A stretch of 64,000 nt of DNA. It comes from a virus. The stretch spans positions 10,702-74,701 of IMG/VR virus record IMGVR_UViG_3300045988_115158. One strand, given 5' to 3'. The position numbers and the translations under genes are program-made. Below the pieces are notes generated by a model. The model was not told the DNA's origin, searched no databases, and saw nothing but the letters and a program-made list of their open reading frames with translations. Shown piece by piece: positions 4,546-63,420 of this stretch (positions are counted from its first letter, which is position 1; the number at the start of each line of letters is the position of its first letter).

Positions 4546-5056
4546 GTAAGTAATTGTTAAAGTCTTCCGACTCTTTTATACATTCATACCCATATTCTAT
4601 CTCTTCTTTATCTAAACTATAAATCTTACCATAAGGACCCCATTTTTCATTAGATTCAGAAGCTATTAATAAGCAAGGCAATCCTGCTAGATTCATCTGA
4701 ATAAAATTACTAATAGAATCATCAATGAAAATATCAACTCTACCTTTTATATACCGAGCTTTATTAGCACGCTGATATAAGACTTGATAAACAGGTTTAT
4801 TAGGATAACCATTATTCTTTAGCCATGTTTTACTATAGTCTTTATTGCATACTCTTTTAGTACAATATAATTCAGGTATAAAGTTTATTTTATTTTTTAC
4901 TGGAAGATTTATCCACCATTCTCTGTCTTTTATTAAAACTTGTTGTACATTTTTTGTTATTTCTCCATCAGACTTAGGATATCCAAATCTTTTTAAATAT
5001 GGATTCATAAACTCATTTAATGTATCATCTAAATCTAAACCAATTCTTAATTTCAT
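4520..5056 (-). CDS. HAD-superfamily 5'(3')-deoxyribonucleotidase-like
   Basis: N-terminal GLDLDDTL (DxDxT) and later IFIDD motif. Confidence 0.55.
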   Translation of the reverse strand: MKLRIGLDLDDTLNEFMNPYLKRFGYPKSDGEITKNVQQVLIKDREWWINLPVKNKINFIPELYCTKRVCNKDYSKTWLKNNGYPNKPVYQVLYQRANKARYIKGRVDIFIDDSISNFIQMNLAGLPCLLIASESNEKWGPYGKIYSLDKEEIEYGYECIKESEDFNNYLREIKSNFY

Positions 5057-5298
5057 AGATTAAATAATTCCTCAATATCTCTTATATATGTTACCCCAAT
5101 ACCTTTCTTAGCCAATTCAGCTCTGATATTTATCCAGCTATCATTGTTATCAAGAATAGCGTATGTATCATCGTCTAAATTTAAGTACTTATCAACTTCT
5201 TCTTTAGCCTTTTCAACAGCTTCCTCATATGAAGATGCTGTTAACTTATGAAGTTTATTTTTATTACTCTGACAAATTGCAAAAATATAATTATTCAT
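5053..5298 (-). CDS. hypothetical protein
   Basis: 81-aa ORF, translationally coupled. Confidence 0.4.
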   Translation of the reverse strand: MNNYIFAICQSNKNKLHKLTASSYEEAVEKAKEEVDKYLNLDDDTYAILDNNDSWINIRAELAKKGIGVTYIRDIEELFNL

Positions 5299-5479
5299 TT
5301 GGTATTGTTATATATAATTATCATTATAATAATAAATAATATCATCATGGTGATTGGGAGTGATAAAAATATTACCACTGCTAATGTTACCCAACTCCAT
5401 AATAATATTCCAAAAATCTTAAGTAAAATTAATATTATACTTATTATAAAATCTATTACTCCTAAGATTAATAATTCCC

Positions 5480-5989
5480 TTATATTAAATTATTACTTTT
5501 AGAATAACATTCTAATAAAGTATAGAAGAAATCCATAGGAACCATTGCTATTGCTCCTGGACTAACACTACCTTCTGTCGGAGCTTTTTTCCAGCATAAT
5601 ACAAATGGTTTATCTTTATATGGACAAGCATCTTCTATCTTAAAATATGCTGGAGTATTAGCAGTATGTTTGGCTTGAATATTTACAGGTAATTTTCCGG
5701 ACCTATCAATTAGATCAACTTTATTATTATCTGTAAACTTACTCTCTCCTCTAGCACTTACACACTCAGTATACCCCATATCTCTAAGATGATGAATTAT
5801 ATCTGCTTCCCATGCACTTCCTTTATTTCTAGACTTTTTAGCTTGATAACTCTTCTTAGTATGGCTATCTATCCATTCATATAAAGTGCCATCAGCCATT
5901 TTTCCAGATTTATTACACCTAATTTTAAGAGCTGCTTGACTTATTTTAGTTTTCTCAGAGCATTCCTCTATAGATGTATAATCGTGCAC
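5480..5989 (-). CDS. PD-(D/E)xK-fold nuclease, Hjc-like Holliday-junction resolvase candidate
   Basis: GSAWEADIIHHLRDMGY...VDLIDRSGKLPVNIQAK pattern (E..., D-x-D, Q/E-x-K). Confidence 0.4.
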   Translation of the reverse strand: MHDYTSIEECSEKTKISQAALKIRCNKSGKMADGTLYEWIDSHTKKSYQAKKSRNKGSAWEADIIHHLRDMGYTECVSARGESKFTDNNKVDLIDRSGKLPVNIQAKHTANTPAYFKIEDACPYKDKPFVLCWKKAPTEGSVSPGAIAMVPMDFFYTLLECYSKSNNLI

Positions 5990-7069: not shown

Positions 7070-7840
7070 CTACATATCTGCCAGCATAGCATCGAAGTCT
7101 TCATCTTGAGCCTCCTTGCCTTCAGTAGAGTCAATAGATTTAGCCTCTTCTGAATCAGCTGCTGGTACAGGAGTAGTAGGCTTACGCTTCTCCATATCCT
7201 CTTTCTGCTTAATCTCATAACTAGAGAATGACAATTTATCTTCCTCTAAGCTAGCAAAATTATCACGGATATAGAACTGTCCATCACTATTAATAGCTCC
7301 AATATCAGGAATCTTAGCAAATACATTACCAGTTTCCTTTGAAATTCCCTTTTCATCCTTTTTCTTTTCCTTACGACCGCTAAGCTTTAAATAAAAGTTT
7401 TTATTCATACAATGCTTAGTCAATACTGCCTGGAAAAGCTGCATAAATTGGTCAGTACTCTTACAAGCAGGAGCTTTAGTTATAAACAATTCTTTAGCTT
7501 TATCACCACCTACTACTGTTATAATATGCAGCATAAAACCTTTAAGCTGTTCAAATGCTGAAGGAAGTACATATGGGAATTCTACACCCTTAGAATCCTT
7601 TCTCTTACCCTCATATCTTTTAGCAGAACTTTCATTAGGATAAAACAATGATTCTTGATAAGTTCCTTGCTCTCCTTCAAAATGAAGTACCAGAGATTTC
7701 CAAGTTGTATTAGGGTCTTGCTTACCTTGACCCTCCTTAACTTCTATACTTTTTAACTGAACGAGATAAATTCCATAAGGACGAAGACCTTTCTTACTTG
7801 TAGGATTAATATCACCAAGACCACCAAAATTTAAATTCAT
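7070..7840 (-). CDS. hypothetical protein (possible ssDNA-binding/recombination accessory)
   Basis: 256-aa ORF between primase and ATPase genes. No firm motif. Confidence 0.35.
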   Translation of the reverse strand: MNLNFGGLGDINPTSKKGLRPYGIYLVQLKSIEVKEGQGKQDPNTTWKSLVLHFEGEQGTYQESLFYPNESSAKRYEGKRKDSKGVEFPYVLPSAFEQLKGFMLHIITVVGGDKAKELFITKAPACKSTDQFMQLFQAVLTKHCMNKNFYLKLSGRKEKKKDEKGISKETGNVFAKIPDIGAINSDGQFYIRDNFASLEEDKLSFSSYEIKQKEDMEKRKPTTPVPAADSEEAKSIDSTEGKEAQDEDFDAMLADM

Positions 7841-7852
7841 ATTGCTATATTA

Positions 7853-8458
7853 TTAAAGATTATCGAAATTAAAATCATTATCTGAGATTTCTGTATCATC
7901 TGCGTTGCCGTCAATAAGACTAGCCATTTCGTCATCTAATTCATCTTCTGATGCAATATCCTCTGCTTCAGGAACTACATCTTCTTTAATCTCAGGCTCT
8001 CGATTACCTGTTAATATAAACAATCCATCAATTTTAGGATGTGGAGTAAAAGTAAACTCATTACCATGCTCAGCAAGGTTCTGGTTATTCTTTCCTCTAT
8101 ATGAAACTGCATTCTTCTGAGTTAATTTATTACCTGACTGCGTACCAAATGTTTCAGCAGCTCCGATAACTAAGCACTCTTTCTTATTAAGTTTCTGCTG
8201 TTTAATATCTACTTTATCTCCTGGTTCTACACCAAGAGCCTCAACAGCAGCCTTATTAAGAATGTACTTATTCTCCTCAAGAATTAATAGTGGATTAGGA
8301 TTTGTATCATCTACTTCTGAATCTTTCTTTTTAGAAGAAGACTTACGAGTAGACGGCTTCTTTACAGAATCATCCTTCAACTCACGTGTATCAGTTAAAA
8401 TTTCACCAGTTTCTTCATTAAGCCACTCGGACTTAATTGTCATTTTAATTAGCTTCAT
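7853..8458 (-). CDS. hypothetical protein with acidic C-terminal tail
   Basis: 201 aa. Ends ...EISDNDFNFDNL, an SSB/gp32-like acidic tail. Weak. Confidence 0.4.
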   Translation of the reverse strand: MKLIKMTIKSEWLNEETGEILTDTRELKDDSVKKPSTRKSSSKKKDSEVDDTNPNPLLILEENKYILNKAAVEALGVEPGDKVDIKQQKLNKKECLVIGAAETFGTQSGNKLTQKNAVSYRGKNNQNLAEHGNEFTFTPHPKIDGLFILTGNREPEIKEDVVPEAEDIASEDELDDEMASLIDGNADDTEISDNDFNFDNL

Positions 8459-9657: not shown

Positions 9658-10845
9658 TTAGTTCAGCGTCACTTCTAGTCGTTTAGCTTTTTCCTCTATT
9701 TCTAGAGGGTTTAGCACAGGAACTTCTTGCTCTTGTTCAAGATTTACCCTGTTTAACGGAGTTTTAGGTACACCTAATTTGTACATAAGAGTGTAATGCA
9801 TATATGGAGTTATTAACTCTTTTAAGTGCTCAAAATCTGAAATACTTAGTCTAATTGTTTGATCTGAATGCTTAGACCAATGCAAGTTAAATTTTGTAAG
9901 CATTACTTCTTGAATAACTTTAATATCTGCATCTGTAAAACAGTTTGTACAAATTGTTATAGAACCATGGTCATAACATCCATCATCCATTATCCAAACT
10001 GCAATACCCAAAGGTTCAATGTTGTCTATAAGAGATTTATTAATATATTTTATTTTATTATTATGATATAATTTATTATAATAGGCTCCCATAGCATCAT
10101 TTACTTTAAAATGTGTATACAAACAAGCATACCATTTACCTTTTATATCATTAAAGTTATCTTTAAAAGATACTTTTCCACAAAATCTTCTTAATTTATT
10201 ATATTTCCAATAAAAATATTCCGCTTGTTTTAAACTATGTGCAAACATTCCAGTTCCACTTTCATCTCTAAGATACCCATCTCCTAATAAACATCCTAAG
10301 AATACTTGAAATTCCTCCGAAGATAATTCATTTAATCTATTTTTATTTTTATTTGGAGATAGCCCTAAAGATCTAGCATATTCTGAAATAGCACTATTAC
10401 TAGTATTTAATTCTTTAGCAATATCTACGTAAGTTAATCCTTGATTATATAAATCAATAAATTTATTTTCATCAAACTTTGGTTTATATTCAAAATTTGA
10501 ATCTAAATTTTTACGTATACGCCAGTTACGTACAGTAACATGATTTAATTGAACTATTCTAGCAATTTCAGAGTCATTTTTTCCTTCTTTATAAAGTTTA
10601 TACATTTCTTCATCATACTTTGCACGATTTTTATAAAGAGACCCATAAATACCCTGACCAATACTCGGAATATTAATTTTCTTTTCTTTAGGTTTTAAAA
10701 TATCTTTAGCACTTAAATTAAATTCAGATAATCTCTTTCGAACTACTGAGAGAGTTACTCCTAGTTTATCTGCTAATTCTTGTCTAGTATGGCAAGAATT
10801 AGCTGCTTCAATAAAATCACTTTTAGAAATTTCAATTTTTTTCAT
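9658..10845 (-). CDS. free-standing LAGLIDADG homing endonuclease with N-terminal HTH repeats
   Basis: LGCLLGDGYL and VWIMDDGCY motifs. Three sigma70-r4-like HTH repeats at the N-terminus. Located immediately downstream of the intron-containing helicase gene. Confidence 0.65.
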   Translation of the reverse strand: MKKIEISKSDFIEAANSCHTRQELADKLGVTLSVVRKRLSEFNLSAKDILKPKEKKINIPSIGQGIYGSLYKNRAKYDEEMYKLYKEGKNDSEIARIVQLNHVTVRNWRIRKNLDSNFEYKPKFDENKFIDLYNQGLTYVDIAKELNTSNSAISEYARSLGLSPNKNKNRLNELSSEEFQVFLGCLLGDGYLRDESGTGMFAHSLKQAEYFYWKYNKLRRFCGKVSFKDNFNDIKGKWYACLYTHFKVNDAMGAYYNKLYHNNKIKYINKSLIDNIEPLGIAVWIMDDGCYDHGSITICTNCFTDADIKVIQEVMLTKFNLHWSKHSDQTIRLSISDFEHLKELITPYMHYTLMYKLGVPKTPLNRVNLEQEQEVPVLNPLEIEEKAKRLEVTLN

Positions 10846-19072: not shown

Positions 19073-19882
19073 TTAGATAACTTTAAACATTGTAACATTC
19101 TCAGGAAGATTGTCCCAGTCTTTATAAGAGTTAGTAAACCATACGTGATTAAAGTTTTCTGACAGATTCTTTATACCTTTAGGATTTACCATATGAGTGA
19201 CTACGATATTTAAACGTTCCTTAGGGATACCTAAAGCATTAAATGCTTTAGCAATACCACAAAAAGTTCCTCCACCATCACATAAATCATCAAGAATTAA
19301 TAATGGTTTATCACTAATTATTTCAGGATTGTCTATTTTAATCTCTAAGATTCTTCCAGTAGTTAAATCTCGAACTTTACTACAAGTAATTGCTGTACTA
19401 TTATATCTGAATTCATTTCTCTTTTCAGCTCCAGCATCTGGGAAAACTAATTGAAATTCTTTCCAAGTATTATTAGATGGATTCTTTTCAGCGTAAAGAG
19501 GCATGAATTTAGCTCCGAATCTAGGATCATAATAAACATCAGAATGAGGTTCTAAGATTTCAATAGTCTCTGCATTACAATTTTTTAATACATTTAAGAC
19601 TATTTTTAAAGTGAATGGTCTATTGAAAACCATTACTCGATCCATTCTCATACTCATTAAGTAATAGATATTTATTTTATATAGAACTTCATGTCTATCA
19701 AGGATATCTAAAACTTGCATAAGTATAAACAAGTCTTCGGCATTAGTAATTCTACATTTTACTAATACTTGTTCCTTATGACTAAATTCTTCTAATGAAA
19801 TTTGAACTTCCCCATCAGGGAATCTAGAGATAGAATATTTAATATCACTATCTTCTAGATGTACTAAATTTAATTGTTGCAT
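19073..19882 (-). CDS. ribose-phosphate pyrophosphokinase-like enzyme (PRPP synthetase family; candidate ADP-ribose pyrophosphokinase of an NAD+ reconstitution pathway)
   Basis: PRTase-type motif LLILDDLCDGGGT. Length and layout like Prs. Adjacent to NAMPT-like and macro-domain genes. Confidence 0.55.
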   Translation of the reverse strand: MQQLNLVHLEDSDIKYSISRFPDGEVQISLEEFSHKEQVLVKCRITNAEDLFILMQVLDILDRHEVLYKINIYYLMSMRMDRVMVFNRPFTLKIVLNVLKNCNAETIEILEPHSDVYYDPRFGAKFMPLYAEKNPSNNTWKEFQLVFPDAGAEKRNEFRYNSTAITCSKVRDLTTGRILEIKIDNPEIISDKPLLILDDLCDGGGTFCGIAKAFNALGIPKERLNIVVTHMVNPKGIKNLSENFNHVWFTNSYKDWDNLPENVTMFKVI

Positions 19883-20364
19883 AATTTATAAATATAAAGA
19901 GTTATTGTTGAATCATTAGCAAAAAGTTCTTGAAGCATAGGATAAACTACTCCATCCCAATCTCCTCCTGCTAATCCACATCCTAATTTATAAGGAATAC
20001 CTACTTCTGTTACTTCTTCGTCTTCACAAAAAGCTTTTAAATTTAACAAAGCTTTTTTAAGAGCATTATAATCAGTATGTCTATTTTCAAAAGGAGCTAC
20101 TGATTCAGTGAAAGAATATTCACCAAACAAATTAGCTACAAATTTAATAGGAAATTCTCCAGTTACACATATTTGACATTTACCTAATAAATCTTTAGAA
20201 TATTCAAAATTTTTACAGATATCAACATATTGTGTATATACAATATTCCATTTATTTTTAATAAACCTAGCTATACCTGCTCCCATTACTCCTAAACAGT
20301 TAGTTTGATGAGCTATAAGAGGTAAGTTTGATTGGAGTAAATCTCCATTAACAATTTTTATCAT
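19870..20364 (-). CDS. macro-domain protein (ADP-ribose binding/processing)
   Basis: GDLLQS..LIAHQTNCLGVMGAGIA macro-domain signature. Confidence 0.55.
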   Translation of the reverse strand: MIKIVNGDLLQSNLPLIAHQTNCLGVMGAGIARFIKNKWNIVYTQYVDICKNFEYSKDLLGKCQICVTGEFPIKFVANLFGEYSFTESVAPFENRHTDYNALKKALLNLKAFCEDEEVTEVGIPYKLGCGLAGGDWDGVVYPMLQELFANDSTITLYIYKLCNN

Positions 20365-20631
20365 ACTAATGTTGAATTTACACGTTCACGAATTTCAGAA
20401 AGAGAATATTCTCTTACTAATTCTCCATCTACAAAGACTGTTTTAAGACAACCTTGCAGTTCTGCATCCTTAGTCTGCTGGTCATAAGCGACATACTTAC
20501 CATTCTCTTCTTCAACTCTAATAAGACCTTTAAGAGAGTTCTTTGTTCCATCATCAGTCTTTGGGTGCTTATAGATTTCTATAAGTTTACCATTAATTAT
20601 ACAAGCAGTTGCTTTTACTGCAACATAAAAG
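20362..20631 (-). CDS. nicotinamide phosphoribosyltransferase-like (NadV/Namat-like), 3' exon
   Basis: No Met. Reads ..FYVAVKATACIINGKLIEIYKHPKTDDGTKNSLKGLIRVEEENG.... This is the NAMPT C-terminal conserved region. The frame opens right after a TAA. Confidence 0.55.
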
Positions 20632-21568
20632 CTTTTACTTTATCCCATTTTCTAGTCATATAGTCACAGTTATCTATGTACATATATAACTTTTCAAGGT
20701 CTTTCCTTGAAGCAATTTCTGCTTTTACATAACCTTTATTACTTGTTTTAATATTAAATCTTATTCCATATAATTCCTCTATTTTAGAGAATAATTCTAT
20801 AAATCTATCTTTCCAATTTGGATGTACTTCTATTCTTAGAGCAATAGAACCATGATTAGTTTCAGTTTGATTGCTAATCCATATAGACCCATCACCATCT
20901 ATTAAACCTATTAAAAAATAGATTAATAAATCTTTAGTATAGAATATATCCAATTTTGGAGGATTATACGTTTTTGGATTAGTATACTCTAAAATAGAGT
21001 ACCATTTTTCTTGAAATTTTTTATCTTGAATACGTAAATCAACAAACTCAGAATTTTCTTTAGAAAATCCTCCAGACTTAATTCTTAGTGTTATTTTACA
21101 TTTAAGATGTTCAGCTAACACCTTTAGATAATCTTTATCCTTGCCTGATAAACATATACATAATTCTCCTCTAGGAGATAAATGACCATCAGCCATAATA
21201 AAGCCCCACCAATAAGCCGATTTACTAGTAAGATTATCTAAAAATTTTAAAGAACCCTAACGCTTTCTTTCAACTTTAGAGGTTACTTTTAGTAATCTGG
21301 CTTTATTCATCATCTAAGAATAAGTTCTAGTAGGGAAAGTATTCAATAATGTTTCCATATCAGAATTTTCCCAATGAAACTTTAGAAGATCTTCCTCTTC
21401 ATTTGTCCATCTCTTATTCTTTTGGATACCAAGCTCTCTAGCTTTTTTCTATAAAGCTTTAACAGTTCTATTTAAACCAAACTCATCTATACATTCTTGT
21501 GCTGTATGGTCTAAATAAAAGGTATTCAAGATTTCAATTTCTTTTTCTGTCCAACTTGCACATTTCAT
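20615..21568 (-). CDS. LAGLIDADG homing endonuclease with Myb/SANT-like N-terminal repeats; contains 3 in-frame TAG codons
   Basis: Frame from ATG at 21568 reads WTEKEIEILNTFY.., WTNEEEDLLKFHW.., ..AYWWGFIMADGHL.., ..LIGLIDGDGSI. TAGs occur at three positions with no TAA or TGA. Confidence 0.55.
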
Positions 21569-21843
21569 ATTATATAAATTTAAGTAGTTTTAACTGTTTA
21601 AATATAATAATTTTCAGTAAAAGTTACAAGTAATAAAAGTTAAATTATGTTAATTTTTATGGACTATATCATAATCCCTATATTTAGGGATTCCGGATGC
21701 TGTAGGCTCACCGTAGTGTCCTTAGTCTCTGAACCTTCCACAGTCTTCCCTGTGGCTCGGCTGCTGATTAAGAATTAACAAACTCTTCCCAGCAATTCTT
21801 CCGGTTATTCGATATGCATTACTGCATAAAGGGGCTCGCAGTT
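20632..21843 (-). other. group I-type intron in the NAMPT-like gene, carrying a LAGLIDADG endonuclease ORF and a GC-rich structured core (21660-21810)
   Basis: Exon ends ..RDSLGF(tt) and resumes (c)FYVAVKATA. U precedes the 5' splice site and G ends the intron. The intron core is markedly GC-rich relative to the genome. Confidence 0.5.
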
Positions 21844-22424
21844 AACCCAAGAGAATCTCTACTCTTAAACTGATAAGTATAAGATCCAATACCAAGAACA
21901 AGATTACAAGCTGCCATATGAGCATTTTCTAATCGAGCATAGATATCACGCTGACGCTCTAGAGTGATAGAATCTCCATAGAGCAACCCAACCTTGGTGC
22001 TTGGATAACGATAATCGTTCACAGTAGTATTCCATCCAAAGATTTTACCTAGCATATAATATGCTCCATAATACTGACCTTCAGATACTTCTACATAATG
22101 ACTTTCATCATCATCCATAAATGGATTGAAATCACAATAGTACTTGCCTTCCTTCATTGCAGTGTGGTAATGAGGATTTGTACGAAGACCACAAATAATA
22201 TCCACTGGGTCACCACTATCAGGACGAATTACTACTCGACCATCACGCTTCATAATGTCTTTTTTCAGACGAGGGAGAATACGTTCTACCACTCTCCAAA
22301 AATCATAAGTATCACTAACTATAGATACAATTCCAATAGGATATAATTCATTTATCAATCTTTTAATTGACAATAATTCTCCAATAAGTTTTTTGTCCTC
22401 TTCAGACGCTTTTTGAATTTTCAT
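21819..22424 (-). CDS. NAMPT-like enzyme, middle segment (ends in intron-derived residues)
   Basis: IVSIVSDTYDF and VVIRPDSGDP NAMPT/NAPRTase motifs. The last ~8 residues (LTASPFMQ) are intron read-through. Confidence 0.55.
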   Translation of the reverse strand: MKIQKASEEDKKLIGELLSIKRLINELYPIGIVSIVSDTYDFWRVVERILPRLKKDIMKRDGRVVIRPDSGDPVDIICGLRTNPHYHTAMKEGKYYCDFNPFMDDDESHYVEVSEGQYYGAYYMLGKIFGWNTTVNDYRYPSTKVGLLYGDSITLERQRDIYARLENAHMAACNLVLGIGSYTYQFKSRDSLGLTASPFMQ

Positions 22425-22500
22425 ATTTATACGCTTTTTTCAAATTATCAATAGCCCATAAAGGCTGTAAATTTTTATAACAGAAACACTCTTTTTGCTA

Positions 22501-23343
22501 TTAGAACAAATTTTTGTCTCCATTTATATCAATATATCCAATTAATTTACCAAAATCATCTAAGATTATTTCTTCTACATTATCTTCAAAATCACTAATA
22601 GTAGAGCAAGCCACTGAATGTTCCGAAGCCGGGACAGTTGCAGCTACAAGTTCTTCAGTAACATCTGCATTGTAATAATGCTCTACTGCTTCAATAGCAG
22701 GAATTGTTTCACTACCACAGAATGAAGTCATATGAGCCATACCTGAAATAATAGCAGCATCAAGTCCTGCCATACCTCTCATTGAGAAATCGTGACAAGA
22801 GAAACCTAGATTTACATCTTCTGGGAATCCAGTCTTTCTAGCATGTTCCATAAGTCTCTTTTTATAGAGACGAGCACTTGTTGCAGAAGTACAAGGAAGC
22901 CATAGAGTACAACTAATTAAAGTTTCCAAGTAATTAGTCAACCAAAAGAAGTCCGGAAGAGTGTTCTTAATAGTCATCATAGGTACTCTTATAGGACAGA
23001 TAGAACCTTCAGGAAGAGCTTTAATTTCAATAGGAAGATACCCCAAATCATAAAGTTCTTCAATATGCTTTGTCCCAACCTGGTTAAGGTCTACAAAGTT
23101 ACCTACACGATAAGCAAATTGCTTAATAGCTTCTTCCTTAGGAAGAGCAAACCATTTATTAAATTCCTCTATCAAATACTTCTTTACAAAGTACTGAATA
23201 CCAAATACTACAGAACCTTCTGTAGCTTCTGGGAAGTAACGATTACTTCTAGGAGTCCAGTTACTATAGACCATTTGTGTACCCTCTGGGTACATACGAT
23301 GATGACCAAGCTTATAGCCATCAGTTGCATTAATAATTTCCAT
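22501..23343 (-). CDS. NAMPT-like enzyme, N-terminal segment (separate ORF, 76-nt gap to next segment)
   Basis: N-terminal TDGYKLGHH motif. 280 aa + 201 aa + 3' exon add up to NAMPT length. Confidence 0.55.
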   Translation of the reverse strand: MEIINATDGYKLGHHRMYPEGTQMVYSNWTPRSNRYFPEATEGSVVFGIQYFVKKYLIEEFNKWFALPKEEAIKQFAYRVGNFVDLNQVGTKHIEELYDLGYLPIEIKALPEGSICPIRVPMMTIKNTLPDFFWLTNYLETLISCTLWLPCTSATSARLYKKRLMEHARKTGFPEDVNLGFSCHDFSMRGMAGLDAAIISGMAHMTSFCGSETIPAIEAVEHYYNADVTEELVAATVPASEHSVACSTISDFEDNVEEIILDDFGKLIGYIDINGDKNLF

Positions 23344-23833
23344 TAATTGATTCTTTTAATGTTAAACCTATACTATATTTATAAAACACTTCAGTTATAT
23401 AACTCTTAGTTTTTTTGTGGATTTTCATATGAGGCTGTTGTTTAAGCCACCATGTATATTCTCTTCTAGGGTCAGCTCCATATGTTTTAGCTGCTGCTAA
23501 ATAATCACATATAAGTTCTAGAACATATTTTTTAGGCATTTTAGCAGGAATTCCTCCATTATCTAAGGAATGTATCCAATATTCATAATGGTGAGGATTC
23601 CTTCCTCTATGGTGAAGGAATGTTTGACTATATCCTAATATTCTACACTCATTCGCTAAAGAGCTCATTTTATCATCCCAATACTTAATAGCTCTTGAAA
23701 ATTCTGTAAAACTAAATTTAGACAAATCATGAGTAATACCTTGCCAATATAATCCTATTTGAAAGCAATATTTAGCAACATAATACTTATGAGTTAAGAT
23801 TCGCTTTATTAATTTCAGCCAAACTAAATTCAT
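23330..23833 (-). CDS. hypothetical protein
   Basis: 167-aa ORF. Confidence 0.4.
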   Translation of the reverse strand: MNLVWLKLIKRILTHKYYVAKYCFQIGLYWQGITHDLSKFSFTEFSRAIKYWDDKMSSLANECRILGYSQTFLHHRGRNPHHYEYWIHSLDNGGIPAKMPKKYVLELICDYLAAAKTYGADPRREYTWWLKQQPHMKIHKKTKSYITEVFYKYSIGLTLKESINGNY

Positions 23834-37189: not shown

Positions 37190-37389
37190 GAGTAGGTACT
37201 TCTAAGAATAAATAAGAACTCAGTACCTATATTGAGGAATCCGTCGTTGGATCAGTTCTACGCAATTTAGGCTTTTTAAGAAGCCTTAACTTACTAAAGT
37301 TTTCGCACAATTTTGATAAGAGCTCTACTTTCACAAGCAAAGCTCTTTTATTTTTAACAACTTATAAATTACAATAATGATAGAAAAAG

Positions 37390-37461
37390 GAAATGCGGAC
37401 AGATTTGAACTGTCGACCTTCTACTCAACGATAGACGCTCTAACCACTGAGCTACACATTT
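37390..37461 (-). tRNA. tRNA-like gene with non-canonical anticodon loop (6 or 8 nt, cgttga / tcgttgag)
   Basis: Perfect acceptor, D-arm (gctc-agtggtta-gagc) and T-arm (gacag-ttcaaat-ctgtc). The anticodon arm tctat-cgttga-gtaga is one nt short of canonical. Confidence 0.45.
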
Positions 37462-39846: not shown

Positions 39847-39916
39847 TGGAGATATGTGGAATCGAACCACAATCTCGGGATTTTTACCGTGCTCTAACCT
39901 TCTGAGCTATATCTCC
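39847..39916 (-). tRNA. tRNA-like gene, anticodon arm degenerate (loop taaaaat)
   Basis: Good acceptor (ggagata/tatctcc), D-arm and T-arm (tgtgg-ttcgatt-ccaca). Anticodon stem only 3-4 bp. Identity unresolved. Confidence 0.35.
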
Positions 39917-40024
39917 ATAGCCCACATTTCTATAAAGGAGAATAGTGGTAACACCTACCTATACTAATAAATTTATTAGTCAGGATTTATCCAAACACAC
40001 TAACAATATATCAAATTAAATTTA

Positions 40025-40108
40025 TACGGTAGAAAGGATTCGAACCAATGACCTTCTCGAAATGACCTATTATAAAAAGAGATGCTATAACCACTGAGCT
40101 ACTACCGT
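40025..40108 (-). tRNA. tRNA-like gene (84 nt), anticodon region unresolved
   Basis: Acceptor acggtag/ctaccgt and D-arm are clear. T region attggttcgaatccttt is shared with the 40539-40619 element. Confidence 0.3.
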
Positions 40109-40163
40109 AAGTACTAGTTTATATCGGAAAACTAGTAAAACGTTAACACATTATTATGGAAAC

Positions 40164-40538: not shown

Positions 40539-40619
40539 TACGGAGTAAAGGATTCGAACCAATATAACCTCTCTATGAATTGTGGAAATGAGGTGCTCTA
40601 GCCATTAAGCTAACTCCGC
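40539..40619 (-). tRNA. tRNA-like gene with enlarged anticodon loop (~11 nt)
   Basis: Acceptor gcggagt/actccgt. D gctt-aatggcta-gagc. Anticodon region cctcat-ttccacaattc-at(a)gagg. Confidence 0.3.
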
Positions 40620-60874: not shown

Positions 60875-61260
60875 TGGTTTCTTTTAAACAGGCATTTGAT
60901 GCTGCTAGAAAAGCAGGTAATCGCTGTTTTTCTTGGAATGGAAATGATTATAATACTATGACTAAAGAGGAATAGAATTCCGGAATTGGAGATTACTTTA
61001 GTAAATTCAAAGGTAATGTTGGAGATAATTCTAATTTTTAGAAAGCTGCCTCTAATATGGGTTCTCAAATGATGGGAGTATTTTAGAATCCTACTAAAGA
61101 TAAATATGCTGGGCAAGATTATAATATTGGAATATATTTTAAACCATAGTTTAATAGTCCTGCTACTAATTAGTTAATAGATTAGGCTACTCTTCCTCCT
61201 AGTACATAGGAAATAACTTCTATAAATGCCCAATTAATAATTTTAATCGATCACAAGTAA
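60874..61260 (+). CDS. late protein, TAG-recoded (8 TAG in ~128 codons)
   Basis: MVSFKQAFDAARKAGNRCFSWNGNDYNTMTKEE(Q)NSGIGDYF.... Confidence 0.45.
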
Positions 61261-61268
61261 GAGCTTTT

Positions 61269-61955
61269 ATGTCTAGTAGAGGACTAGATCCATATGCTTA
61301 TACTGGAGGTTAGAGAAAGGCTCTGAGAAAAGCCTTAAATTCTGGATAGGATGTTGAAGCTATCTTTAAATAGTGGAGTTAGGATAATCAACCTATATCT
61401 TATAATGCTGAAGGAGGTCTTTTAAAATTTGACGATGGAGGAACTATGGAAGATTTTAAAAAGTGGCTTAATTAGAAACTTCGTAAAGGAGAGTTAGAAG
61501 AATCAGACTTAAGTAAAGAAAAATTAGCATAGTTATATTAGACATTTAAAAAAGAACAATAGGGAGTACAAACTGCTATGAATGGTGCAAAACTTAATTA
61601 TATAAATCAATTAAATGGTAAATGTCCTTAGGGGACACATTTATCATATTATAGAATAGGAGGAACATTGTGTAAAAAGTGTGAAGCTGATGCTCATAAT
61701 GAAAGTTCTGATCCTATTAAAGCTTTTAAATAGAAATGTGGCGGTAAGGTTAAAAAGAAAGAATTAGGTGGTGAGGTAGATAATAAAAAACCTAAATTAG
61801 TAAAAAAGCCTCAATCTAAACCAGGAATGGTAAAACCAACTAATAAACGCCCAGGACCTAAAGATTTAAAAACACTTCCTAATGGTAAGTATCCAAAATA
61901 TTGGACAGCTACTTAGCGAGGTTAGTGGGATAGAGATCATGATGAAGGAGATTAA
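61269..61955 (+). CDS. late protein, TAG-recoded (about 15 TAG); Cys4 cluster
   Basis: MSSRGLDPYAYTGG(Q)RKALRK...CP(Q)GTHLSYYRIGGTLCKKCEADAH...KYWTAT(Q)RG(Q)WDRDHDEGD. Confidence 0.45.
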
Positions 61956-62041: not shown

Positions 62042-62610
62042 ATAATTAGACTTTAGGAAAGGTTGAATTAGATGAAACTGAATTATTACTAATAAAAGAA
62101 TTTAGAGATTTATTAGATAATAATCGTAATAAAAGTAAAACTGATCCTAAAGGCGAACATAAAGAAAGAGCTTTCAGAGAATTATCTTATATATATCTAG
62201 CTATTGATTGGAATTCCCCATATCATAATTATGATGAATAGGATAGACATGAAGCAGCTATTGATGATTCAGGGCTAACAGAGAATGAATTTAATGATTC
62301 AGTATTTAGAACTGCTTGTAGAAAGTATTAGGAAATTCAAAATTCTAATAGACTAGTTAGAATGGTAAAAGCTGCTGAAAGTACTGTAGATAAATTAATA
62401 GATTACTTTGAAAATGTAGATCCTCTAGAAAGAGACCCTTAGACTGGAAAACCTATTTTTAAAGCTAAAGATATTATGGCAGAAATTTCTAAATTAGATG
62501 AAACTGCTGATGGATTATTAGCTCTAGAAGGAAGATTAAAATCTTCTATGCAAGAATCATCTAGTATTAGAGGAGATGCTCAAGAAGGATTTGACCCAGG
62601 AGACTTTTAA
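62042..62610 (+). CDS. late protein, TAG-recoded; candidate small terminase by position
   Basis: MSKWF(Q)YN(Q)TLGKVELDETELLLIKEF.... Immediately upstream of the gp17-like terminase gene. Confidence 0.35.
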
Positions 62611-62612
62611 TT

Positions 62613-63313
62613 ATGGCTGAAGAAATTAAACGTAAACGAGGAAGACCTAAGAAAATACCTACAGTAATTGACGATGTAAAACCTAAAAAGAAGCCTAAAA
62701 TACCTAAAGAGATTTAGGATATGATTAATAAAGTACATGGCACTGTAGAAGATCCTATGAAGGAAGCGGTTGAAAGTCTTAAACCTTAGAAGATAGTTGA
62801 AGAATCTAAACCCGTATTAGAAATAAAAGAGACTGATACTGATGAAGCTATCTTAGGTAAAGTTAGAGATTAGTCTGGATGGGATGTAAAAAAAGATGAT
62901 CCTATACCTTATTTTGATGCTAATTTATCTTATGAGTTAACTGGATATAAACCTATTAATAAATACAGAGGTTTAGATTTTAATCCTTCATGGTTTACTG
63001 AAACTAGAGATACTTTTGTAAGAACTGGACATTATACTAGATTTAGAAGAAACTCTAGAAGCTGGAGAGCTTTTTGGAAAGAATAGTTTATACGATGTAA
63101 ATATGGTATGACTTCTCATGGTTATACTATTACTGGAGACCATTATTATTTCCTCAACTTTTATAGATTAAAAGATCTTGATAATGTTGAAGAAGCAGGT
63201 ATGGGACGTCAGGAAATTTTCCCTAATTTTCTAGAAGGATAGTACGAATGGTTTCATTATTTAAAATTAGCTAGAAAATTACGTATGAATGCCTGTATGA
63301 TGAAAGCCAGAGG
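62613..63313 (+). CDS. terminase large subunit (T4 gp17-like), 5' exon ending inside Walker A; TAG-recoded
   Basis: ...HYLKLARKLRMNACMMKARG parallels T4 gp17 ...KRMTVCNLSRQLGKTT. The frame then runs into stops and structured sequence. The 3' boundary is approximate. Confidence 0.5.
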
Positions 63314-63420
63314 GGCGGACTTACTGCCCTCCTATAAGGTGACTTATAGGTAATAAATTCCGAAATTTCGGTGAAGACTAAGGTGATTTAATCACGATAA
63401 TATTTTTAAATTTTTATAGT

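Follow-up and report, generated by a model that had tools for sequence, protein, structure and literature searches.

Does a cluster of three phage genes rebuild NAD+ from ADP-ribose (ADPR) and nicotinamide, and could it still do so when one of the three is interrupted twice? The cluster lies on the minus strand, from 23343 to 19073, of a 64-kb window of IMG/VR virus record IMGVR_UViG_3300045988_115158 (positions 10,702 to 74,701 of that record); the window is the whole stretch of DNA analysed here, and all coordinates follow its numbering. In the list of open reading frames (ORFs) the cluster consists, in transcription order, of a NAMPT-like, a macro-domain and a Prs-like gene. A first-pass annotation had proposed that adjacent genes of these three kinds supply a NAD+-rebuilding pathway. 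Our results suggest that the region is very probably an instance of the phage NARP1 system with an associated phosphatase (NARP1-AP), carried by a phage that reads TAG as glutamine. The three-enzyme pathway itself is already known (published 2024-2026); what is new here is the gene structure of the interrupted NAMPT-like gene, which we call Namat after its counterpart in that system, as we call the other two products Adpp (macro-domain) and Adps (Prs-like). For comparison we recovered 80 related loci; loci and contigs used for comparison carry L-numbers below.

The three genes and their predicted pathway

The three genes are the following:

23343-20361, minus strand: NAMPT-like (Namat) coding sequence, with NAMPT_N and NAPRTase domains; NF006629 at 255 and 235 bits for its two halves
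20364-19870, minus strand: macro-domain ORF, 164 aa; Pfam Macro at 34.5 bits against a gathering score of 22
19882-19073, minus strand: Prs-like ORF, 269 aa; TIGR01251 at 60.4 bits, phrog_619 at 204 bits, Pribosyltran at 19.9 bits, sub-threshold

All three were found adjacent, as the first-pass annotation had them, and the profile searches that it recommended bear it out for the Macro domain and for NAMPT_N/NAPRTase; the Pribosyltran match, in contrast, stays below threshold. The genes are tightly packed. The TGA of Namat (20363-20361) overlaps the ATG of the macro gene as ATGA (20364-20361), and the macro and Adps reading frames overlap by 13 nt (the positions of stop/start overlaps, and likewise the end of exon 1 given further below, were obtained by counting along the sequence, and the coordinates of endonuclease TAG codons were converted from codon indices). 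This adjacency is not a matter of chance: more than 15 related viral contigs show this string of genes again, and Namat has Adps beside it in almost all of the 80 loci.

The identification of the NAMPT-like protein as a putative Namat is supported by its fold, its clamp motif and its linkage to Adps. When the conceptual join of its three coding pieces was searched against solved structures, it scored 442 bits with 9w5x/9w5w, 350 with 9ke8 and 188 with human NAMPT. The labels of 9w5x/9w5w and 9ke8 read only 'nicotinamide phosphoribosyltransferase'; we take 9w5x/9w5w to be the Namat of Bacillus phage SpβL1 because the residue numbering agrees with that of PMC12774641. A clamp-helix motif, GS-X-Φ1-X-Φ2-X-Φ3-TRD with aromatic X at positions 3 and 7, is the mark of specificity for ADPR-pyrophosphate (ADPR-PP) that separates Namat from Nampt (PMC12774641). 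The window reads GSYTYQFKSRD, with Tyr at position 3 and Phe at position 7, which fits this consensus; the same motif is present in all 80 related loci, and the validated Namats of phages Bas63, Gary and FADO carry GS[YF]TYQY.TRD. The residues listed as contacting NAD+ (PMC12774641) are conserved, in SpβL1 numbering D13, Y15, R40, F189, S190, R192, A242, H245, R306, D308, G360, D361, G390, S391, R399 and D400. Among these, R40 belongs to the clamp loop, which provides a stacking Arg, Lys or Tyr in Namat (PMC12774641): R35 of the window, in 'TPRSNRY', aligns with SpβL1 R40 in 'TPRTSRV', the window loop being two residues longer. An Adps homologue lies one gene downstream, inside the 10-gene distance used as a criterion for Namat, and is likewise found in the related loci. 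We also noted a His/Cys/Asp-rich stretch of about 40 aa in the C-terminal piece of Namat (window ~22204-22085, residues LRTNPHYHTAMKEGKYYCDFNPFMDDDESHYVEVSEGQYY), which replaces about 11 residues of SpβL1 Namat, aligned to no solved structure and is conserved in L119.

The Prs-like protein falls outside the bona fide Prs enzymes and inside the phage Adps group, and its assignment as a predicted Adps is supported by several comparisons. On the Prs model TIGR01251, with a cut-off of 113 bits, it scores 60.4 bits and E. coli Prs 422.7, with the validated Adps of Gary, Bas63 and FADO at 99.9, 138.5 and 96.5 bits. The first-pass annotation had named an ordinary phosphoribosyl pyrophosphate (PRPP) synthetase, with nicotinamide mononucleotide (NMN) rather than NAD+ as the product, as the result that would overturn it; at the level of sequence, such an outcome is not borne out. 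On an Adps profile built from 31 Namat-adjacent Adps, none of them from the clade of the window, the ranking is reversed (window 196.6 bits, E. coli Prs 144.0), and phrog_619 is the best PHROG of the window protein (204 bits) as it is of the Gary, Bas63 and FADO enzymes. The residues RxDR, HS, PDxGA, K169-x-R and DD..G..F are invariant between the window and these three. K169, in 'SKVRD', is invariant across that alignment and is likely the equivalent of K162, the catalytic Lys of SpβL1 Adps. A tblastn search with Adps returned 957 phage records, including Bas63, FADO and Prevotella phage Lak-B2 (37% identity), and a PDB search for an Adps structure gave Prs chains only, at 37 bits or less. 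Beside these comparisons, phrog_12872 (547 positions) has an Adps-type match at 4-224 and a Namat match at ~220-538, which suggests that natural Adps-Namat fusion proteins exist.

For the macro protein, homology supports an assignment as Adpp, a predicted ADPR-1''-phosphate phosphatase. It is 38% identical over its full length (E 7e-28) to the Adpp of Vibrio phage Gary (KNV71_gp137), shares with it the motifs AHQxNC..MGxGIA and GCGLAGGDWD, and belongs like it to phrog_335; structures of yeast Poa1p match it at E 2e-6 (30.9 bits). RES-type NAD+ phosphorylases release ADPR-1''-phosphate, which Gary Adpp converts to ADPR, and the three-gene NARP1-AP operon overcomes that defence; a macro-domain protein is present in 15% of NARP1 operons, and Adpp is recognised there by PF01661, PF14519 or PF20016 within two genes of the NARP1 pair (bioRxiv 10.64898/2026.01.28.702374). 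In the window PF01661 scores 34.5 bits and the macro gene lies between Namat and Adps. The first-pass annotation was thus right about the presence of a macro domain, but it regarded this as an additional component, and the protein now corresponds to a described part of the pathway, the Adpp of NARP1-AP.

Two other assignments have to be weighed against these. The macro protein might act as a de-ADP-ribosylase and take ADP-ribose off DNA or protein, for example against DarT-type toxins, since its best NCBIfam match is the DarG macrodomain NF048014 (57.8 bits) and its best PDB match is 5m3i (37.9 bits), which we take to be M. tuberculosis DarG, slightly over Poa1p. We consider such a role very unlikely because the DarG cut-off of 250 is not nearly reached, because the validated Gary Adpp likewise matches the DarG model weakly (34.9 bits), and because what is presumably the catalytic Lys of DarG, in the 'PTK' loop, is replaced by Glu82 in the window and by Gln in Gary Adpp. 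The 164-aa protein is moreover without the C-terminal DarT-binding part of DarG, and its gene overlaps those of Namat and Adps, between which it lies. The second possibility is an ordinary salvage pair, serving NARP2 or metabolic boosting, in which the Prs-like enzyme makes PRPP, the NAMPT-like enzyme makes NMN and an NMN adenylyltransferase (NMNAT) of host or phage completes NAD+. The domain annotations, Prs and NAMPT, would fit it, and Namat can take PRPP in vitro when ADPR-PP is absent. This reading seems to us highly improbable, given a Prs-like protein that scores 60 bits where a true Prs scores 423 and that groups with validated Adps, and a NAMPT-like protein that has the clamp motif of Namat; phage NARP2-type Nampt, furthermore, accompanies Nmnat and not Adps. 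A six-frame scan of the 64-kb window gave no (H/T)xGH or ISSTxxR NMNAT motif, a weak test on a partial genome, in line with the reported absence of phages that combine NARP1 with NARP2.

For the NARP1-AP reading, the NARP1 tests on Namat clamp motif, Adps family and Adpp homology, made on the sequence, came out in favour of the rebuilding of NAD+ from ADPR and nicotinamide that the first-pass annotation had put forward. A host NADase effector of the SIR2, TIR or SEFIR type would cleave NAD+ to ADPR and nicotinamide, or a RES-type NAD+ phosphorylase would instead yield ADPR-1''-phosphate, from which Adpp would strip the 1''-phosphate to give ADPR. Adps, with ATP, would then convert ADPR to ADPR-PP, and Namat would swap the pyrophosphate for nicotinamide and so form NAD+ directly. 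Namat would be made as two polypeptides, a 280-aa N fragment and a C fragment of about 280 aa, the mRNA of the latter first losing a self-splicing group I intron; the LAGLIDADG ORF of this intron, with its three TAG codons, would be completed only under TAG suppression as Gln. The activities are predicted from the homology of the three proteins to characterised enzymes, and the splicing and the joining of the two Namat fragments are likewise predictions.

The route from ADPR, nicotinamide and ATP to NAD+ via ADPR-PP is established for SpβL1, Bas63 and Gary (bioRxiv 10.1101/2024.02.11.579819; 10.64898/2026.01.28.702374). Of these systems, the NARP1-AP of Gary has the same three families in a cluster (macro 38% and Adps 27% identity, Namat in the same PHROG) and the same predicted chemistry, from ADPR-1''-phosphate through ADPR and ADPR-PP to NAD+. 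Unlike Gary, the window has the order Namat-Adpp-Adps, reversed with respect to the characterised operons, a Namat in three DNA pieces that would give two polypeptides, and Glu for the nicotinamide-binding Asp, and its phage is a TAG-recoded one of the human gut, with a host of another lineage. With the NARP1 of SpβL1 and of Escherichia phage Bas63 the window shares the pair of Adps and Namat and, within Namat, conserved catalytic residues together with the motif of the clamp helix and the Arg of the clamp loop (bioRxiv 10.1101/2024.02.11.579819; PMC12774641); those systems consist of two uninterrupted genes in the order Adps-Namat, whereas the window adds Adpp and two endonuclease-associated insertions. 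The NARP2 of Vibrio phage KVP40 (Nampt and Nmnat) resembles it in restoring NAD+ during infection with a NAMPT-family enzyme, but it lacks Adps and relies on PRPP with an NMN adenylyltransferase, in contrast to the Adps and the Namat clamp motif found here.

Two interruptions of Namat and the reading of TAG

The first-pass annotation had an intron and a homing endonuclease burdening the module. Both are present, but the description was incomplete, as Namat has two independent interruptions. In the ORF list the gene appears in these parts:

23343-22501, minus strand: listed ORF, 280 aa; Pfam NAMPT_N and the start of NAPRTase
76 nt following the 280-aa ORF, minus strand: gap that opens with TAA TAG and in which the frame changes
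22424-21819, minus strand: listed ORF, 201 aa; middle part of NAPRTase
stretch of about 1.2 kb, minus strand: contains a listed LAGLIDADG ORF of 193 aa at 21196-20615

Comparison with the related loci resolves these parts as follows:

22501..23343, minus strand: Namat N-terminal ORF (Namat-N), 280 aa; NAMPT_N 38.5 bits, NAPRTase 26.7 bits; ends TAA TAG
22402..22523, minus strand: remnant of a free-standing HNH homing-endonuclease gene, from alignment with L003 and L008 (full insert) and L005 and L007 (no insert)
21845..22424, minus strand: Namat C-terminal ORF (Namat-C), exon 1, from ATG 22424 to T21845, where a Phe codon has its first base; codes for the adenine-clamp helix GSYTYQFKSRDSLG as well as RPDSGDP and YGDS
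20624..21844, minus strand: predicted group I intron, 1221 nt; boundaries set against intronless L002 and L007
20615..21568, minus strand: LAGLIDADG homing endonuclease ORF, 317 codons; Pfam LAGLIDADG_1 (PF00961) at 36-40 bits
20361..20623, minus strand: Namat exon 2, reading (F)AVKATACIINGK...NSTLV and stop

As we read the alignments, a free-standing HNH gene split Namat into two ORFs and was later disabled when 520 nt were deleted from it. At the site, alleles without an interruption (L005, L007 and six more) have EHSVMCAGGEDGEIETYRRLINDLYP. In L003, L004 and L008, 716-746 nt are inserted there and make up a 213-codon HNH endonuclease gene, whose ATG lies 20 nt ahead of the TAA of Namat-N and whose TGA lies 20 nt past the ATG of Namat-C. 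Two in-frame TAG codons fall in conserved parts of this gene, CSNCG-TAG-EKPISEF and DPI-TAG-QKECFCYKNLQPLW. The remnant in the window retains the original ATG and the C-terminal 'NLQPLW', and the 520-nt internal deletion shifts its frame; L002 shares the deletion junction. Namat-N, of which residues 7-249 align to residues 12-252 of SpβL1 Namat, holds the nicotinamide pocket, the catalytic His in 'ASEHSV' and a cassette-derived tail of 33 aa (TISDFEDNVEEIILDDFGKLIGYIDINGDKNLF), which is not in uninterrupted alleles. Namat-C received from the cassette a new start, MKIQKAS..., with a head of about 20 aa. The split point is seven residues beyond the catalytic His. A small intron, an intein, a frameshift site and a bypass were considered for this interruption and rejected, as L003 and L008 have a complete HNH ORF; since it fills the insert and overlaps both Namat ORFs, there is no space for a ribozyme core, and the Cys after EHSV is native and not the start of an intein.

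The second interruption has the boundaries of an intron. The intronless alleles L002 and L007 read ...AGAGATTCTTTGGGTTTCGCAGTTAAAGCG (RDSLGFAVKA); in the window, with a slash for the junction, the 5' end is ...CTTGGGT/TAACTGCGAGCCCC... and the 3' end ...GCTTTTATG/TTGCAGTAAAAGC, and excision of 21844-20624 gives LGFAVKAT exactly, as in those two alleles. The site is the codon directly past the clamp helix. In a P1 helix GGGU would pair with GCCC, the last exon base U standing opposite the G of GCCC, with a predicted splice junction CTTGGGT/TTGCAG; in P10 the 3' exon UUGCAG would pair with CUGCGA in the P1 loop, and this pairing covaries (UCGCAG/CUGCGA in L010, UUGCAA/UUGCAA in L119). The terminal base of the intron is G (...TTTTATG), P, Q, R and S core elements were seen by eye, and the endonuclease ORF is placed after P9. 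We infer a self-splicing group I intron from these boundaries and from an ORF-less allele of 213 nt in L010, which scores 58.9 bits on RF00028 Intron_gpI (gathering 50, E 1.6e-14) and is 96.7% identical to the core in the window. L119 and L120 have an orthologous intron, 80.6% identical over 1.2 kb. A second viral contig (L123 2152-2256) holds a relative of the intron core, with 76% identity over 110 nt and an exact 36-nt core match. A literature search on introns in phage NAMPT genes gave nothing specific.

Upstream of the listed 193-aa ORF the endonuclease frame runs through three TAG codons (21451-21449, 21316-21314 and 21259-21257) to an ATG at 21568, and a second LAGLIDADG motif, 'GFIMADGH', was seen by eye in this upstream part; the stop codon sits a few bases into the 3' exon. 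In L119 the endonuclease is an uninterrupted ORF of 318 aa with Gln at all three TAG sites (ALQKKA, YDQMMNKA, KRKRQGSL), so the endonuclease of the window would be intact only if TAG is read as Gln.

That TAG is read as Gln in this phage appears well supported by these three sites together with the ORF and stop-codon statistics and a domain match across TAG. Counting TAG as sense raises the total length of long ORFs in the window from 31.2 to 42.2 kb, and among ORFs of at least 120 codons the stops are TAA in 47, TGA in 12 and TAG in 4. ORFs with 3-13 in-frame TAG each cluster at 50-64 kb and are presumed late genes:

57276-56458, 56238-55561, 52617-51472 and 51517-50351, minus strand: TAG-rich ORFs
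61170-61955 and 62595-63353, plus strand: TAG-rich ORFs

The ORF at 56238-55561 matches the SLT lytic transglycosylase domain across two TAG codons, one of which we take to be at the Gln position of the GLMQ motif of these enzymes. The three NARP1 genes are without TAG. The nearest relatives of the phage derive from human faeces, and recoding of TAG to Gln (code 15) has been published for gut phages (bioRxiv 10.1101/2021.08.26.457843; PMC9523058; PMC10607447). The window resembles these in having in-frame TAG in one presumed late block, TAG rare as a terminator and one TAG at a conserved Gln. It differs in that the suppressor tRNA called by ARAGORN (86 nt) has the anticodon UUA and not CUA and an odd structure; despite the apparent reading of TAG as Gln, no suppressor with a CUA anticodon was called in the window. 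Odd tRNAs lie on the minus strand at 40024-40109, 40539-40619, 37389-37461 and 39847-39916; among them are two tRNA-like genes that seem to have an anticodon-region loop of about 18-20 nt, one with a 6-nt loop reported as anticodon 'tt', and two found by Rfam only.

Phage genes in pieces are reportedly produced by free-standing homing endonucleases, as in the nrdA of Aeromonas phage Aeh1 split by mobE, and group I introns with endonuclease ORFs are said to occur in phages such as T4 (td). Like the former, the window and its relatives have a free-standing HNH gene inside a conserved enzyme gene, with stop and start codons overlapping on both sides; like the latter, the intron sits precisely where a conserved active-site element is encoded. 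Unlike in those cases, a predicted anti-defence gene has been hit here, the split persists with a crippled HNH gene, and both endonuclease ORFs have in-frame TAG.

Use or decay of the split gene

Is a Namat in two pieces still used? We lean towards the view that the split Namat is functional. The ORFs of Namat-N and Namat-C are intact in seven genomes from two lineages (the window, L002, L003, L004, L008, L119 and L120). L119 and L120 belong to the other lineage, with 77% amino-acid identity, and have both interruptions at the same sites and a homologous tail and head. Between the window and L119, at a synonymous divergence (dS) of 1.39, the ratio of nonsynonymous to synonymous divergence (dN/dS) is 0.15 in each Namat piece, and all catalytic and clamp motifs are kept. 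The 33-aa tail is looser (proportion of nonsynonymous differences, pN, 0.34 vs 0.16), yet ILDD..K.IGYID..G.K is kept. If the split predates the divergence of the window and L119, the two-piece gene has been under purifying selection. Two PHROG families point in the same direction: phrog_16547 has N-terminal halves of Namat only and phrog_15800 C-terminal halves only, and split forms therefore recur.

Several observations weigh against our reading of the module, and we bring them together here. The clamp motif of the window has Ser before RD where the consensus has Thr, and the nicotinamide-binding Asp (SpβL1 D215) is Glu ('GSET'), with the other core residues kept. The latter change is conserved across the gut-phage clade, in about 60 related loci, and is therefore a feature of the clade rather than damage; Glu is probably tolerated at this position. 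Rfam made no group I call in the window itself, either at gathering score over the whole window or with E up to 10 over 20300-22700, presumably because an ORF of about 1 kb is inserted after P9. The constraint between the window and L119 is informative only if the split is older than their divergence. Among the five closest split alleles dN/dS is 0.03-0.08, and we rejected these values as a measure of selection after the split; they are confounded because the site patterns are those of recombination with uninterrupted alleles, with an invariant tract beside the insertion. Finally, close relatives have lost parts of the module. In L001 (MT835492.1), positions 7362-7547 fuse codons 1-32 of a DUF5662 gene to the last 29 codons of Namat, with a loss of about 3.3 kb, while the Adps and macro proteins of this genome are 96-98% identical to those of the window. 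In L113, positions 5001-5495 join DUF5662 codons 1-63 to residues 150-269 of Adps. These losses suggest that the module is dispensable and may be decaying in the lineage.

The alternative to which these losses lead is that the HNH insertion inactivated Namat, which would then be a pseudogene whose two ORFs are still intact only through the recency of the event, with Adps and Adpp as relics or in another ADP-ribose-related role. Namat lies in two frames with TAA TAG between them, the nearly invariant tract that the five closest split alleles share beside the insertion is a pattern of recent spread, most close relatives have an uninterrupted Namat, and some have deleted it (MT835492.1), or have neither Namat nor macro gene and only half of Adps (L113). 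Nonetheless we find such decay rather unlikely. In all seven genomes, including L119 and L120 at dS 1.4, the two reading frames are open and no catalytic or clamp residue is lost, the tail and head derived from the cassette are partly conserved, and Namat-C has its own ATG straight after the cassette. Genes split by an endonuclease that still work are moreover said to exist, Aeh1 nrdA among them.

A functional split Namat also allows a more elaborate idea, which we offer as a speculation and hold to be improbable: the tail and head of the HNH cassette, partly conserved at dS >1, might let the Namat halves reassemble, and the TAG-bearing endonucleases might be translated only late and the TAG-free NARP1 genes early, so that the selfish elements would be tuned to spare the anti-defence operon.

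Neighbouring genes and wider meaning

Upstream of Namat, at 23330-23833 on the minus strand, a gene overlaps the start of Namat by 14 nt; its product matches DUF5662 (110 bits) and has His-rich motifs and 'THDLSK', which is HD-like. In L021 (8077-8622) DUF5662 lies between Namat and Adps. We do not claim it as an accessory of NARP1, as about 14 of 20 more distant DUF5662 loci are without Namat or Adps within 5 kb, and the link seems to be confined to this lineage. Farther upstream, the strongest terminator-like hairpin of the region (25007-24977, minus strand, 13 pairs and then a T-run) precedes the overlapping gene string that ends in the NARP1 module, and no comparably strong terminator-like site was seen inside the module. 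A scan of sigma-70 promoters was uninformative, as it gave 42 sites where 49.6 would be expected.

In 19 related loci the slot of the macro gene between Namat and Adps is filled by a HAD-like protein of about 140 aa with an invariant DFDNT...DDRAG (L012 at 7548-7979, L017, L018, L020-L026, L033, L036, L039, L040, L042, L073, L097, L099 and L101). The resemblance to the HAD-type DxDxT has weak Pfam support (15 bits), and the best PDB match of the profile is 2obb_A (E 1.3e-5). This protein never co-occurs with the macro gene in this set, and in Prevotella phage Lak-B2 (L118 3525-3917) its gene also lies immediately upstream of an Adps homologue. It may be an undescribed alternative phosphatase for the pathway, a lead that may be more useful than the main finding.

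Beyond cultured coliphages and cultured phages of Vibrio and Bacillus, NARP1-AP would with this locus extend to large uncultured phages of the human gut that have recoded TAG. The phage genes imply that NAD+-depleting defences, including those of the RES type, matter in the gut too. Intact, HNH-split, HNH-remnant, intron-only, intron-plus-endonuclease and deleted alleles coexist among the relatives at 93-100% identity, a range that shows fast turnover of an accessory module. The split alleles are in addition a natural test of how far Namat tolerates being produced as two chains, cut seven residues past its catalytic His.

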